Positions 51,277 through 54,269 of a stretch of 64,000 bases of DNA are shown piece after piece. The notes beneath the pieces are model-generated. The model was not told the DNA's origin. It saw only the letters and a list, made by a program, of their open reading frames with translations, and did not search any database. Position numbers and translations under genes: made by a program. Numbering within the stretch: position 1 is the first letter of the stretch; the number at the start of each line of letters is the position of its first letter. Where the stretch lies: sequence record NC_052652.1; one strand, given 5' to 3'. The stretch comes from Escherichia phage vB_EcoM_PHB05.

Positions 51277-51352
51277 GGTTCCATAGCTCACTGACGAGAG
51301 CGCACACCTCATAAGTGTCGAGGGCAGGGATTGTAACCCTGGGGAACCACCA
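51277..51352 (+). tRNA. tRNA-Met(CAT) (or Ile2/fMet; anticodon CAT)
   Basis: Manual fold: acceptor GGTTCCA/GGGAACC (one mismatch), D-stem GCTC/GAGC, anticodon loop CTCATAA, T-stem CAGGG/CCCTG, encoded CCA. Confidence 0.6.
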
Positions 51353-51383
51353 TTTAAAAGGAGGTGCTATGCATCTCCTATAT

Positions 51384-51469
51384 GCAAGTGTGGTGGAATT
51401 GGTGATACACATTGTGCTTAAAACGCAACGCTTAAATGATTGAGGGTTCGAATCCCTCCACTTGCACCA
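51384..51469 (+). tRNA. tRNA-Leu(TAA)
   Basis: Acceptor GCAAGTG/CACTTGC, anticodon arm TTGTG-CTTAAAA-CGCAA, long variable arm, T-loop GAGGG-TTCGAAT-CCCTC, CCA. Confidence 0.7.
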
Positions 51470-51471
51470 AC

Positions 51472-51577
51472 GCCTAGTAGGGTATTTGGTAATTCCGAGG
51501 CCATCAAAGCCTGAAAAATATGTTAGACCGCTTTGTCTAACTAAATACGAAATATGGTTCGATTCCATAACTAGGCT
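51472..51577 (+). ncRNA. atypical 106-nt tRNA-like element
   Basis: Perfect 7-bp acceptor pairing GCCTAGT/ACTAGGC and canonical T-arm TATGG-TTCGATT-CCATA, but about 30 nt too long and no clean D or anticodon arm. Confidence 0.3.
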
Positions 51578-51610
51578 TCAATTTAAATAATAATTTTTAG
51601 TAAAAATATC

Positions 51611-51639
51611 TTGACATTCACTTAGTTTTTTGTTATAGT
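51611..51639 (+). promoter_or_regulatory. near-consensus sigma70 promoter inside tRNA array
   Basis: TTGACA-N17-TATAGT with TGn extended -10. Confidence 0.65.
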
Positions 51640-51650
51640 TGCTTTGAAAA

Positions 51651-51732
51651 CGGGGTGTATCTCACCTGACTTCTAATCAGGCGTTAACCGAGTAATTGGA
51701 GTATGCAGGTTCGAATCCTGTCACCCCGACCA
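51651..51732 (+). tRNA. atypical tRNA-Arg(TCT)-like element
   Basis: Acceptor CGGGGTG/CACCCCG, anticodon arm CCTGA-CTTCTAA-TCAGG and T-arm GCAGG-TTCGAAT-CCTGT resemble argU, but no D-arm and a 23-nt segment before the T-arm. Confidence 0.4.
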
Positions 51733-51751
51733 AAAAGTTTTTAAAAACTAC

Positions 51752-51781
51752 TTGACAAGCAAGATAGTTTTATGTTAGATT
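51752..51781 (+). promoter_or_regulatory. sigma70-like promoter inside tRNA array
   Basis: TTGACA-N18-TAGATT with TGn. Confidence 0.5.
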
Positions 51782-51796
51782 TAAAGTATGATAACG

Positions 51797-51886
51797 GGAA
51801 GGTAGGGCGCAGCGGTGCGCAACCAGGTTTGAACCCTGGCCCATTGTAGCGATACGGTGATGGTTCGACTCCATTATCTTCCTCCA
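51797..51886 (+). tRNA. tRNA-Ser(TGA)
   Basis: Acceptor GGAAGGT/ATCTTCC, anticodon arm CCAGG-TTTGAAC-CCTGG, 19-nt variable arm, T-loop TTCGACT, CCA. Confidence 0.7.
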
Positions 51887-51904
51887 AATTCAACTAGGAG
51901 CTTT

Positions 51905-52057
51905 ATGAATTATAAAACTATTGGACAGGTTGTTACAGGAGTTAAGATTGTAGATAATAAGGTTGTTTATGAGTATTCTAATCTTCAACAATCTGAAGAT
52001 GGTAAGAATATTCGTATGGTAAAAGCAGAACAAAAAGACTCCGGTTGTTTTGAATAA
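51905..52057 (+). CDS. small hypothetical protein (50 aa) within tRNA array
   Basis: ATG 51905 with AGGAG RBS; upstream part of track ORF overlaps a tRNA and is rejected. Confidence 0.3.
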   Translation: MNYKTIGQVVTGVKIVDNKVVYEYSNLQQSEDGKNIRMVKAEQKDSGCFE

Positions 52058-52065
52058 TTAAGAAC

Positions 52066-52151
52066 GGTAGATTGGTGAAATGGTAGCCACAACAGTTTGC
52101 TAAACTGTCGTCGGAAACGGCGTGTAGGTTCAAGTCCTACATCTACCGCCA
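52066..52151 (+). tRNA. tRNA-Ser(GCT)
   Basis: Acceptor GGTAGAT/ATCTACC, anticodon arm ACAGT-TTGCTAA-ACTGT, long variable arm, T-loop TTCAAGT, CCA. Confidence 0.7.
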
Positions 52152-52277
52152 AGTTATCTTTAATGTAGCTTGTAATCTTACTTTAATAGAGTAAATCTTC
52201 GGCAAGTGGCGGTAACCACTTTACCGATATCCCATAGTCAAGTGCCGCAAACACTGGCTATTTTAAAGATAATTTAT

Positions 52278-52353
52278 ACATCGTTAGCTCAGTTGGTAGA
52301 GCAAGGGGCTTTTAACTCCAAGGTCGAAGGTTCGAATCCTTCACGATGTACCA
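52278..52353 (+). tRNA. tRNA-Lys(TTT)
   Basis: D-arm GCTCAGTTGGTAGAGC as in E. coli tRNA-Lys, anticodon loop CTTTTAA, T-loop GAAGG-TTCGAAT-CCTTC, CCA. Confidence 0.75.
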
Positions 52354-52358
52354 AACAC

Positions 52359-52445
52359 GTAGGTATCGCATAGCGGCAATTGCTGGAGACTGTAAATCTC
52401 CTGCCCTTCGGGGCTTCGTTGGTTCGAGTCCAACTACCTGCACCA
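52359..52445 (+). tRNA. tRNA-Tyr(GTA)
   Basis: Anticodon arm GGAGA-CTGTAAA-TCTCC, long variable arm, T-loop GTTGG-TTCGAGT-CCAAC, CCA. Confidence 0.7.
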
Positions 52446-52452
52446 AATTAAA

Positions 52453-52719: not shown

Positions 52720-53049
52720 GTGTATGTGACAGAAAAAGAGTTAGAGAAATATTTTAATATCAATGTTTTCGATGGTTTTGATGATATTGAAGATGTTGAA
52801 AGATATTATGAAGTAGAGTTAGATAAGGATAACATTGTAATTCTTTCTGCCACTTATGATTGTGCATATTATGAAGGTGAATCTCACGTTTATTTTTATG
52901 ATATGAAAACATCTTTGTTTTATGAAGTACACGCATATCATTGTTCTTGTTATGGCTTAGAAGGTCAGTGGGAACCTGAAGAAATAGGTGATTTGGATTT
53001 TACTATTGCATATCTAAACAGACGTGGTGCATCTACTATTTTAAAATAA
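52720..53049 (+). CDS. hypothetical protein within tRNA array
   Basis: 109-aa ORF with AAAGGAG RBS; exact start (GTG 52720 or ATG 52724) uncertain. Confidence 0.5.
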   Translation: MYVTEKELEKYFNINVFDGFDDIEDVERYYEVELDKDNIVILSATYDCAYYEGESHVYFYDMKTSLFYEVHAYHCSCYGLEGQWEPEEIGDLDFTIAYLNRRGASTILK

Positions 53050-53063
53050 ATATCAAAAGCCTC

Positions 53064-53093
53064 TTGACAAAGGGGCTAATAATATGTTAGAGT
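53064..53093 (+). promoter_or_regulatory. sigma70-like promoter inside tRNA array
   Basis: TTGACA-N18-TAGAGT with TGn. Confidence 0.55.
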
Positions 53094-53104
53094 AATATTG
53101 TTAA

Positions 53105-53179
53105 GCGGGTATAGTGTTAATGGTAGCATATGAGGTTTCCACCCTCCAGGTGCAGGTTCAAGTCCTGTTACTCGCTCCA
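53105..53179 (+). tRNA. tRNA-Gly(TCC)
   Basis: Acceptor GCGGGTA/TACTCGC, anticodon loop TTTCCAC, T-loop GCAGG-TTCAAGT-CCTGT, CCA. Confidence 0.7.
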
Positions 53180-53278
53180 AGATTATTTAAATGGAATCGC
53201 TAGAGAAAATTTCTCTTTTCGCTCATGGTTTTCTCCTTCAAACTCTAGCGGTTCTTTTTAAGTGATTTTTAGTTTTAT

Positions 53279-53353
53279 TGGAGATTAGCCTAGTGGGAAG
53301 GCAACGGCCTTTGAAGTCGTGATGACTAGGTTCGATTCCTAGATCTCCAGCCA
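53279..53353 (+). tRNA. tRNA-Gln(TTG)
   Basis: U1-A72 start, 3-bp D-stem GCC/GGC, anticodon loop CTTTGAA, discriminator G, CCA; mirrors E. coli tRNA-Gln. Confidence 0.7.
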
Positions 53354-53360
53354 GTATTTA

Positions 53361-53436
53361 CAGTGCGTAGCGCAGTTGGTAGCGTGGGAGCTTTGGATGC
53401 TTCGGGTCGCAGGTTCGAGTCCTGCCGCACTGACCA
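53361..53436 (+). tRNA. tRNA-Pro(TGG)
   Basis: Acceptor CAGTGCG/CGCACTG, D-arm GCGCAGTTGGTAGCGT, anticodon loop TTTGGAT, T-loop GCAGG-TTCGAGT-CCTGC, CCA. Confidence 0.75.
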
Positions 53437-53441
53437 AATTT

Positions 53442-53516
53442 GCAGAGATAGCTGAGACGGATTAGTGCTACCCTGAAAAGGTAGAAAGGATGGATCGTTA
53501 CCATCTCTCTGCACCA
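53442..53516 (+). tRNA. tRNA-Phe(GAA)
   Basis: Acceptor GCAGAGA/TCTCTGC, anticodon arm CTACC-CTGAAAA-GGTAG; T-loop ATCGTTA is non-canonical. Confidence 0.6.
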
Positions 53517-53593
53517 AATAACACCATCCAAGGAGTAGACTTGGTTAACTGTCAATAGCACATTGAGGCTTCTTACAGTGGTGTGCTTATTAT

Positions 53594-53678
53594 GGCTAAG
53601 TGGTGGAATGGTATACACGATACGCTTAGAACGTATTGCCCCAAGGGATTGTGAGTTCGAGTCTCACCTTAGCTACCA
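53594..53678 (+). tRNA. tRNA-Leu(TAG)
   Basis: Anticodon arm ATACG-CTTAGAA-CGTAT, long variable arm, T-loop GTGAG-TTCGAGT-CTCAC, CCA. Confidence 0.7.
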
Positions 53679-53766
53679 TATCTAAGAGATATCATAGGGT
53701 TTGCAACGGATATCTACCGTCCTGTTAAGGATACCACGCCAAGACGGGTTATAAAGGGTTAGCCAT

Positions 53767-53842
53767 TGATAGTGTGAAGCTGGCGTTTCGAGTGCTTTCA
53801 TAAGGCATTGCGAGAAGAGTTCGATTCTCTTACTATCAACCA
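53767..53842 (+). tRNA. tRNA with anticodon CAT (Met or Ile2)
   Basis: Perfect acceptor TGATAGT/ACTATCA, anticodon loop TTCATAA, T-loop AAGAG-TTCGATT-CTCTT, CCA. Confidence 0.55.
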
Positions 53843-53857
53843 AATTACTACAGATTG

Positions 53858-53936
53858 CGCGGGATAGAGGAGTCTGGTCGTCCTCGCCAGTTTCATATGC
53901 TGGAGATCATCGGTTCGAATCCGATTCCCGCCTCCA
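53858..53936 (+). tRNA. tRNA with anticodon CAT (Met/fMet/Ile2), 1-72 mismatch
   Basis: Anticodon arm CCAGT-TTCATAT-GCTGG, T-loop ATCGG-TTCGAAT-CCGAT, CCA; first acceptor pair appears mismatched. Confidence 0.5.
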
Positions 53937-54001
53937 TTAAATACCTCCCTTCTGGTGTAATGATTAAATTGCATTGACACTTCAAGGAACTCATAGCCGG
54001 G

Positions 54002-54077
54002 TAGATTTAAAAGAGTATGGTACTCAATATGGCTCCAAACCATAGATCAAGGGGTTCGATTCCTCACCTTGCTGCCA
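54002..54077 (+). tRNA. tRNA-Trp(CCA)-like element (5' boundary uncertain)
   Basis: Anticodon arm TATGG-CTCCAAA-CCATA and T-loop GGTTCGATTCC then CCTTGCT-G-CCA, but no convincing 5' acceptor strand. Confidence 0.35.
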
Positions 54078-54082
54078 ATTAT

Positions 54083-54158
54083 TGTGGTATCGTACAGATG
54101 GTTAGTACACTCGACCGATAATCGAGAAACAACGGTTCGACTCCGTTTACCACGACCA
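54083..54158 (+). tRNA. tRNA-Ile(GAT)
   Basis: Acceptor TGTGGTA/TACCACG, D-stem GTAC/GTAC, anticodon arm CTCGA-CCGATAA-TCGAG, T-loop AACGG-TTCGACT-CCGTT, CCA. Confidence 0.7.
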
Positions 54159-54269
54159 AACTCCGTGCCAGCGGTGTCTTCGAAGAACAAGCCTAGTTCC
54201 TTCTGAGATGGAGGGGTGCGACTCCTTAACGCACATACCACTACTACTAAATACTTATCAGGAGATATT

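Follow-up and report, generated by a model that had tools for sequence, protein, structure and literature searches.

We analyzed a window of 64,000 nucleotides from Escherichia phage vB_EcoM_PHB05 (NC_052652.1), whose + strand carries an array of tRNA genes at 51277-54158, among them an irregular arginine tRNA gene at 51651-51732. Judged by its sequence, this is the tRNA gene region of a phi92-like (Justusliebigvirus, Stephanstirmvirinae) E. coli myophage. ARAGORN called 16 tRNA genes in the array and zero elsewhere in the window: three with a CAT anticodon (Met/CAT), Leu-TAA, Leu-TAG, Ser-TGA, Ser-GCT, Lys, Tyr, Asn, Thr, Gly, Gln, Pro, Phe and Ile-GAT. The Rfam tRNA model (RF00005, gathering threshold 29 bits) scored 14 of 17 genes above that threshold, at 40-70 bits. 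Thirteen of these are common to ARAGORN, and the remaining match, 51651-51729 at 40 bits, was found by Rfam only, the gene being missed by ARAGORN at its default settings. Three ARAGORN calls (51277, 51797 and 53767) are below the Rfam threshold; the one at 51797 scored 35.3 bits with the tRNA-Sec model, under the threshold of that model. The tRNA genes, all on the + strand, are as follows.

51277..51352, + strand: CAT tRNA, probably Ile2 (lysidine type); ARAGORN, sub-threshold in Rfam
51384..51469, + strand: tRNA-Leu(UAA); ARAGORN and Rfam
51651..51732, + strand: non-canonical tRNA-Arg(UCU) without a D hairpin; Rfam and family covariation
51797..51886, + strand: tRNA-Ser(UGA), 86% identical to T5 tRNA-Ser1; ARAGORN
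52066..52151, + strand: tRNA-Ser(GCU); ARAGORN and Rfam
52278..52537, + strand: tRNA-Lys(UUU), tRNA-Tyr(GUA) and tRNA-Asn(GUU), with spacers of 5-7 nt; ARAGORN and Rfam
52628..52702, + strand: tRNA-Thr(UGU); ARAGORN and Rfam
53105..53179, + strand: tRNA-Gly(UCC); ARAGORN and Rfam
53279..53516, + strand: tRNA-Gln(UUG), tRNA-Pro(UGG) and tRNA-Phe(GAA), with spacers of 5-7 nt; ARAGORN and Rfam
53594..53678, + strand: tRNA-Leu(UAG); ARAGORN and Rfam
53767..53842, + strand: CAT tRNA, elongator Met by elimination; ARAGORN, sub-threshold in Rfam
53858..53936, + strand: CAT tRNA, initiator-like, with a C1xC72 mismatch; ARAGORN and Rfam
54083..54158, + strand: tRNA-Ile(GAU); ARAGORN and Rfam

The initial annotation of the window, made from the letters alone, had counted 17 or more canonical-looking tRNAs. 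The count of 17 holds, as 16 genes by ARAGORN plus one by Rfam, and ARAGORN agrees with its anticodon list (CAT three times, Leu-TAA, Leu-TAG, Ser, Lys, Tyr and others), but the description is untrue of 51651-51732, a tRNA-Arg without a D hairpin and the one non-canonical gene among the 17. Its remark that most of the genes carry an encoded CCA was an understatement, as all 17 do. It had also named rejection of most hand-folded tRNAs by a covariance model as the outcome that would speak against an array, and when the Rfam model was run this outcome did not arise.

The irregularity of the 17th gene lies between its acceptor strands, which are themselves in the usual places. Nucleotides 51651-57 pair with 51722-28, and the stem is followed by A73 and CCA. 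U8 and A9 stand at 51658-59, and from there to the anticodon stem the gene has solely TCTCA, so that the D hairpin expected between positions 9 and 26 of a canonical tRNA-Arg is absent. In the Rfam alignment of 51651-51729, the 15 D-arm positions are accordingly reduced to 4 nt, and a 20-nt insertion appears in the variable region. The anticodon arm occupies 51665-81, with the anticodon at 51672-74 in the loop CUUCUAA (Arg-UCU). It is followed by a D-loop-like TAATTGGAG at 51693-701 and by the T arm at 51705-21. The CTC at 51661-63 pairs with the GAG at 51690-92, and this is the proposed permuted D stem, in which the 3' strand CTC would come first and the 5' strand GAG would follow a linker. 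Read from its 5' end, such a tRNA would consist of the acceptor 5' strand, U8 A9, N22 and then 23-25, N26 and the anticodon arm 27-43; next the linker (8 nt in 51651-51732), 10-12 and T13 A14 R15 N N G18 G19 A20 N; and finally a few nucleotides ending in Y48, the T arm, the acceptor 3' strand, R73 and CCA. In E. coli, the identity set for arginyl-tRNA synthetase (ArgRS) consists of A20, C35, U or G at 36, and a purine at 73. The corresponding elements are found in 51651-51732, namely the UCU anticodon, A73 and an A after the GG motif that we infer to be A20.

Homologs were collected by pattern scans of IMG/VR, which gave a family of 60 distinct sequences (60-64 in all, depending on the search). 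A covariance model built from the 60 returned 64 family hits at 48 bits or more, with ordinary tRNAs at 40 bits or less. Pairing was tested on a parse anchored on motifs, and not on pairing, together with the covariance-model alignment, because MAFFT misaligned the 6-nt class. Covariation is heavy in the acceptor, anticodon and T stems. Of all cells, 97% are paired, and two-sided changes occur at 19 of 20 pairs. The 3 nucleotides 5' of the anticodon stem covary in turn with the 3 nucleotides directly 5' of the D-loop-like motif TA(A/G)N1-2GGA, in the combinations CTC/GAG, CGG/CCG, CCC/GGG, CGC/GCG, CAC/GTG, CAA/TTG and CGA/TCG. In 20 distinct classes, 56 of the 60 cells of this long-range helix are paired, compared with 8-34 of 60 in slid registers. 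Its pairing value was reached in 0 of 20,000 permutations, and both-sided changes are seen at all three pairs in the model-fitted alignment. The slid controls also ruled out an alternative register, that of TCTC with the GGAG of the TGGAG motif. Because of this long-range covariation of three nucleotides, we read the helix as a D stem that encloses the anticodon arm, i.e., as a permuted D arm. The RNA of 51651-51732 most likely folds into an L shape with this permuted D arm; a circularly permuted D/anticodon domain could still build such a shape.

Several nucleotides outside the helices are conserved in the family. U8 and A9 are invariant, GGA (G18 G19 A20) is present in 60 of 60 sequences, and position 73 is a purine in 55 of 60. 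A15 occurs together with U48 in 59 sequences, and the lone sequence with G15 has C48. When the architecture was searched without regard to the anticodon in 2.4 Mb of tRNA-rich phage loci, 60 hits were obtained, all with Arg anticodons (55 UCU, 3 CCU, 1 ACG and 1 UCG), which fits recognition by ArgRS through a putatively relocated A20. The permuted tRNA-Arg lies in the tRNA arrays of at least five groups (Justusliebigvirus, Felixounavirus, an Asteriusvirus jumbo phage, Kuravirus and Vequintavirinae). Since 185,579 bacterial and archaeal species, represented by one genome each, contained only two family members, both on 36-41-kb contigs of metagenome-assembled genomes, the family is essentially phage-borne. 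In its acceptor and T arms, 51651-51732 is nearly identical to the canonical T5 tRNA-Arg(UCU), which suggests that the permuted form may have arisen by duplication and truncation.

The initial annotation had further described near-consensus sigma70 promoters with a TG extended -10 in the array, and this description is borne out. The motif TTGACA-N17/18-TGnTAnnnT occurs in 12 copies in the window, compared with 0.22 expected from shuffles, and four of the copies lie among or beside the tRNA genes.

50943..50972, + strand: promoter-like TTGACA-N18-TAAGAT with TG, 5' of the open reading frame (ORF) 51003-51269 and the first two tRNA genes
51611..51639, + strand: promoter-like TTGACA-N17-TATAGT with TG (11 of 12 matches), 12 nt 5' of tRNA-Arg
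51752..51781, + strand: promoter-like TTGACA-N18-TAGATT with TG, 16 nt 5' of tRNA-Ser(UGA)
53064..53093, + strand: promoter-like TTGACA-N18-TAGAGT with TG, 12 nt 5' of tRNA-Gly

Three of these predicted promoters end 12-16 nt before tRNA 5' ends, and their transcripts would therefore begin a few nucleotides upstream of the tRNAs. The eight copies outside the array are at window positions 1948, 7329, 13725, 21642, 27593, 41383, 47554 and 58046. Seven of them are on the strand given by the local GC skew, and the exception, 47554 (+), lies in a negative-skew stretch.

The phage genome is 37% GC and uses A/U-ending codons far more than E. coli. We compared codon usage in 66 long, mechanically called ORFs of the window with that in 46 annotated genes of E. 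coli K-12. The codon AGA is enriched 7.2-fold in the phage, CTA 2.6-fold, ACA 2.5-fold and ATA 2.3-fold, and AGG, TGT and TCT are also among the most enriched codons. The codons were pooled by E. coli anticodon species according to the K-12 tRNA anticodon table, which gave 16 phage-encoded and 24 non-encoded species. The ratio of phage to host demand is higher for the 16 encoded species than for the other 24 (Mann-Whitney p=0.0098); Arg-UCU (AGA/AGG) ranks first, at 5.4-fold, and Ile-k2C ranks third. In every multi-isoacceptor family (Arg, Gln, Gly, Leu, Pro, Ser-UCN and Thr), the U34 species alone is encoded, and the choice of isoacceptor tracks the A/U-ending codon bias without exception. 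The codon compensation proposed in the initial annotation is thus supported as a correlation only. Unmodified host RNA polymerase would transcribe the array rightward into several overlapping polycistronic precursors, host RNase P and host 3' exonucleases would free the tRNAs, and host synthetases would charge them. The tRNAs would then boost the decoding of A/U-ending codons, i.e., AGA, AUA, CUA, ACA, UUA and others. We assign a probability of roughly 0.6 to this reading, in which 16 canonical tRNAs and one permuted-D tRNA-Arg are transcribed and processed by the host and supply the decoding of A/U-ending codons.

Several points weigh against it. The codon correlation is modest (p about 0.01) and comes from the 66 mechanically called ORFs and 46 host genes; E. 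coli is not short of tRNAs for Lys, Tyr, Asn, Phe, Ile-GAU and Met; a set with U34 species only equally suits a strategy of replacing the host pool; and the steps of expression, processing and charging are all predicted from sequence. As to the permuted gene, the long-range helix is only 3 bp, and the G15-C48 covariation is one sequence. Because the patterns used to retrieve most homologs fix the anticodon loop or the D-loop-like motif, the invariance of these segments is partly circular. Nearest-neighbor energies computed with RNAfold favor a local hairpin in 51651-51732, at -26.1 versus -21.2 kcal/mol. We rejected this variable-arm hairpin (CCGA/TTGG) because, over the family as a whole, it pairs no more often than expected by chance (34 of 80 cells). 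A different role for the whole array would be to sustain translation mainly when host tRNAs are cut by anticodon nucleases or degraded in shut-off, an anti-defence hypothesis that has been published (PMC10264068). PrrC, RloC, colicin D/E5-like enzymes, PARIS and retron effectors are candidate nucleases here, and the unusual tRNA bodies (permuted-D Arg, extra-arm Asn and odd T loops) would be poor substrates for them. The array tRNAs are consistent with such a role in being 62-82% identical to those of E. coli, with differences in every anticodon stem, and in having five loops that differ from the host at 32/37/38 (Gly, Gln, Leu-UAG, Met and fMet). Moreover, Lys, Tyr and Asn, all of them known nuclease targets, lie close to one another with spacers of 5-7 nt, and the confinement of the permuted architecture to Arg would be expected if an Arg-tRNA-specific nuclease had selected for it. 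However, the anticodon loops of Lys, Tyr, Asn, Thr, Arg and Ile2 are the same as the host's, so the loop-mutation signature proposed in PMC10264068 is absent for the classical targets; Asp, His, Glu and Arg-ICG are missing from the set although they are nuclease targets too; and isoacceptor choice follows codon bias exactly. We consider anti-defence unlikely to be the main role, though the two roles can both hold and are not mutually exclusive, and the array offers a clean case for the debate between codon compensation and anti-defence.

For the 17th gene itself, the furthest-reaching interpretation, to which we give somewhat less than even odds, is that it belongs to a phage-specific, undescribed class of functional tRNA-Arg, non-cloverleaf in structure, charged by the host ArgRS via a relocated A20, and decoding AGA/AGG, for which it would be the phage's sole tRNA. 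It is the only Arg tRNA gene in Justusliebigvirus, AGA is the most host-discordant codon of the phage, and the sister genus Phapecoctavirus has a canonical tRNA-Arg(UCU) in its array instead. This argues against a non-decoding tRNA-like RNA, which might be a decoy or inhibitor of a host factor that binds Arg-tRNA, a processing signal, or a decaying pseudogene. Such an RNA would be in keeping with the failure of ARAGORN to find the gene, with its lack of annotation in most records, including nearly all of those of Justusliebigvirus, and its label "tRNA-OTHER" in one record, and with the local fold preferred by RNAfold; other tRNA-like RNAs without anticodon loops and one relic are present in the array, and T5 has stable tRNA-like RNAs of unknown function. 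But all four helices covary strongly across 63 sequences in at least five phage groups, which excludes a pseudogene. The anticodon loop has the canonical 7 nt, including U33 and A37, the anticodons vary within the Arg boxes only (UCU, CCU, UCG and ACG), and CCA, R73, A20, U8, A14 and the R15-Y48 pair are all kept. We therefore regard a non-decoding RNA as improbable, more so than an anti-defence role for the array.

Other Arg or Arg-like tRNAs of irregular build were seen in viral contigs. A second subclass of Arg(UCU) tRNAs has a helix of 5-6 bp enclosing the anticodon arm and then a GGA-containing loop (contigs L141, L184, L196, L205, L207, L213 and L224), with helices such as CCCGA/TCGGG, CCCAC/GTGGG and CCCGAC/GTTGGG. 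Contigs L145, L081, L120 and L175 each carry two or three permuted-D tRNAs with differing Arg anticodons, e.g., UCU, CCU and UCG in L145, and UCU and ACG in L120. UCU tRNAs with a normal D arm and a long variable arm of class II type are found in contigs L011, L018, L021, L135, L148, L164 and L195, and could be of Arg or Ser type.

Among the remaining tRNAs, the three with a CAT anticodon are plausibly Ile2 (51277), elongator Met (53767) and initiator (53858), as the initial annotation had guessed. The guess gains from sequence nearness in two cases, the nearest sequences of the 51277 gene being T5 tRNA-Ile2 and E. coli ileX, and those of the 53858 gene being the fMet tRNAs of E. coli and T5; the 53767 gene is assigned to Met by elimination only. 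A recent host origin of the array tRNAs was considered and rejected, because their identity to the E. coli counterparts is merely 62-82%. Non-canonical T loops take the place of TTCRANY in the Ile2-like 51277-51352 (ATTGTAA) and in tRNA-Phe at 53442-53516 (ATCGTTA). Long variable arms are normally confined to Leu, Ser, Tyr and Sec tRNAs. The tRNA-Asn(GUU) at 52453-52537 has a class-II-like variable region of 15 nt with the hairpin GAAC-GAAA-GTTC, and a scan of viral contigs gave 28 distinct tRNA-Asn sequences with variable hairpins of 11-20 nt, covarying stems, and G73 in nearly all.

Several spacers of the array are occupied by tRNA-like RNAs, relics or other structured elements, which the initial annotation had not mentioned.

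51472..51577, + strand: tRNA-like element closed by a 7-bp stem, with TTCGATT in its T arm and a long variable hairpin, without CCA
52152..52277, + strand: structured element with a long closing helix and inner hairpins, between tRNA-Ser(GCU) and tRNA-Lys
52545..52621, + strand: tRNA-like RNA without an anticodon loop, homolog of T5 "RNA3", 3' of tRNA-Asn
53180..53278, + strand: 99-nt spacer forming a long hairpin (z about -5), conserved within the genus
54000..54077, + strand: degenerate tRNA-Trp(CCA)-like relic, 22.9 bits in Rfam, found by ARAGORN at a lowered threshold only

No non-tRNA Rfam family fits the spacers, at permissive E-values over 50-56 kb and 51.46-51.8 kb. The element at 51472-51577 was called by ARAGORN as an Asn tRNA with an intron under its intron, low-threshold and mitochondrial settings; the call is weak and we treat it as a tRNA-like element. 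Its variable hairpin is 6 bp, its anticodon-like loop CAUCAAA is without U33, and it is absent from phages Paula and Antha. The call of a Trp tRNA at 54000-54077 is likewise weak, and the sequence is treated as a relic and not as a tRNA; its D, anticodon and T arms are intact and its acceptor stem is absent.

The structured element at 52152-52277 shows compensatory substitutions among Justusliebig-, Phapecocta- and Vequintavirinae phages, in an inner hairpin (AGTGG/CCACT versus GATGG/CCATC) and likewise in the closing helix. Homologs of 100-126 nt, all unannotated, were found in 178 phage records from several subfamilies, including some T5-like phages, and some relatives have an internal duplication of 45 nt in the element. 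A 7-bp stem closes the RNA at 52545-52621, which also contains a T arm and the string GTAGAGTTAAGGTAAAC. This RNA recurs at 99% identity in a Phapecoctavirus but is replaced in other Justusliebigvirus genomes. With T5 RNA3 (L037 9878-9950) it shares GTAGAGTTAAG(G)TAAAC, the T arm and the site after tRNA-Asn. This likeness was found by eye, as BLAST of the window spacers against T5 matched tRNAs alone. The conserved tRNA-like spacers link phi92-like phages to the 40-year-old unexplained "stable RNAs" of T5, on which the literature that we searched, incomplete in its coverage, gave nothing relevant.

Small protein genes lie between and beside the tRNA genes, and a terminator follows them.

51003..51269, + strand: small ORF of 88 aa, Phi92_gp110 homolog (phrog_15056, E=3e-50)
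51905..52057, + strand: small ORF of 50 aa, Phi92_gp111 homolog (PHROG match)
52726..53049, + strand: small ORF of 107 aa with a GTG start, Phi92_gp114 homolog (PHROG match)
54270..54539, + strand: small ORF of 89 aa (PHROG match)
54550..54574, + strand: intrinsic terminator with a 10-bp stem and then a T run, the sole consensus one downstream of the array

The "at least two" small protein genes of the initial annotation correspond to the ORFs 51905-52057 and 52726-53049 inside the array, and the other two (51003-51269 and 54270-54539) flank it. All four match PHROG families of unknown function, with E < 1e-39 each, and searches of Pfam, PADLOC and the PDB with these ORFs returned nothing informative. 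The ORFs 52726-53049 and 54270-54539 carry the same phi92 label in one relative; paralogy of the two was rejected, as BLASTP found no similarity. In the stretch 51359-51443, a strong 9-bp hairpin at 51359-51379 (z about -5.8) stands between two tRNA genes with no T run behind it, and carries a terminator annotation in phage Paula. It contains AAGGAGG followed by an ATG at 51370, which opens a 24-codon ORF that overlaps tRNA-Leu(UAA). Upstream of the array, 48797-50530 encodes a nicotinamide phosphoribosyltransferase (NAMPT) homolog, and downstream are an Rz-like spanin (55283-55714) and the large terminase (55958-58042).

The array as such, to judge from sequence comparison, is already known and ordinary. 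The 4.5 kb around it are 97-99% identical to more than 50 deposited Justusliebigvirus phages (best 99.2%), and 54 records cover at least 80% of the 4.5 kb. Between the NAMPT-like gene and the large terminase, relatives such as ECGD1 (KU522583), W22, BME3 (PP239276), outra (MN850645) and Paula (LR865361) carry annotations for the same 16 tRNAs with their order unchanged, and exactly these 16 are listed in the BME3 paper (PMC12210895). It is this identity, together with the annotated and published tRNAs, that makes the array a known one. Nothing substantial separates the window from these relatives; the presence of 51472-51577, the 45-nt duplication and HNH insertions vary. HNH or homing endonuclease genes are seen inside the homologous array of the relatives VEcB, ALITA, PATM and JohannJBalmer, as well as in T5, and ORF, PHROG and Pfam searches found no HNH homing endonuclease gene inside the array of the window. 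Knowledge of such tRNA arrays dates back to T4 and T5, and the array itself adds nothing new to it. The tRNA region of T5 (AY543070, 28-41.6 kb) likewise has tRNAs amid early sigma70 promoters and small ORFs, and its record lists eight "stable RNAs with unknown functions", several of them tRNA-like, and notes suppressor activity for several T5 homologs. T5 differs in having 24 tRNAs for all amino acids, HNH endonuclease genes inside the array and a cloverleaf tRNA-Arg(UCU), whereas the array of the window comprises 17 tRNAs, is free of HNH genes and includes the permuted tRNA-Arg.

A phage tRNA-Arg that is D-armless or permuted was not described in the literature that we searched, the coverage of which was incomplete, so that an earlier description is possible. 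All known bacterial tRNAs were stated to be cloverleafs in a 2024 paper (PMC11551756). If our reading of 51651-51732 is true, it would be the first natural non-cloverleaf elongator tRNA of a bacterial translation system, in a class widespread in the tRNA arrays of Felix O1-like, phi92-like, rV5-like, Kuravirus and jumbo phages. If functional, it would mean that bacterial ArgRS, EF-Tu and ribosomes can use a tRNA that lacks cloverleaf connectivity, and it would offer a natural scaffold for the engineering of orthogonal tRNAs. Standard tRNA finders would then be undercounting phage tRNAs, and in this phage would have missed the one for the most host-discordant codon.

Irregular tRNAs of three other kinds can be compared with the permuted tRNA-Arg. 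The D-armless mitochondrial tRNAs, e.g., metazoan mt-tRNA-Ser(AGY), are also without a D hairpin and have an acceptor-anticodon link of 5-6 nt. In contrast to them, 51651-51732 keeps the D-stem strands and the G18-G19-A20 motif, relocated 3' of the anticodon arm, has a canonical T loop, U8 and A14, and belongs to a bacterial translation system; the unpaired D-replacement loop of the mitochondrial type is not seen in the family, which has the long-range covariation. In the permuted and split tRNA genes of Cyanidioschyzon merolae and Nanoarchaeum, the order of DNA segments also departs from the canonical one, but the mature tRNA is a normal cloverleaf after circularization or trans-splicing. The C. 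merolae type has its 3' half upstream, whereas in 51651-51732 the acceptor 5' strand leads, and the T arm, the 3' strand and CCA end the gene. With the acceptor strands in normal order, the permutation lies within the D/anticodon domain and would therefore be retained in the mature RNA. The allo-tRNAs, which come from metagenomes and phage tRNA clusters, are likewise non-canonical (Mukai et al. 2017, PMC5389517). They combine acceptor/T branches of the 8/4 or 9/3 type with a normal D arm and a long variable arm; the permuted tRNA-Arg family differs from them in its 7/5 branch and its relocated D arm.

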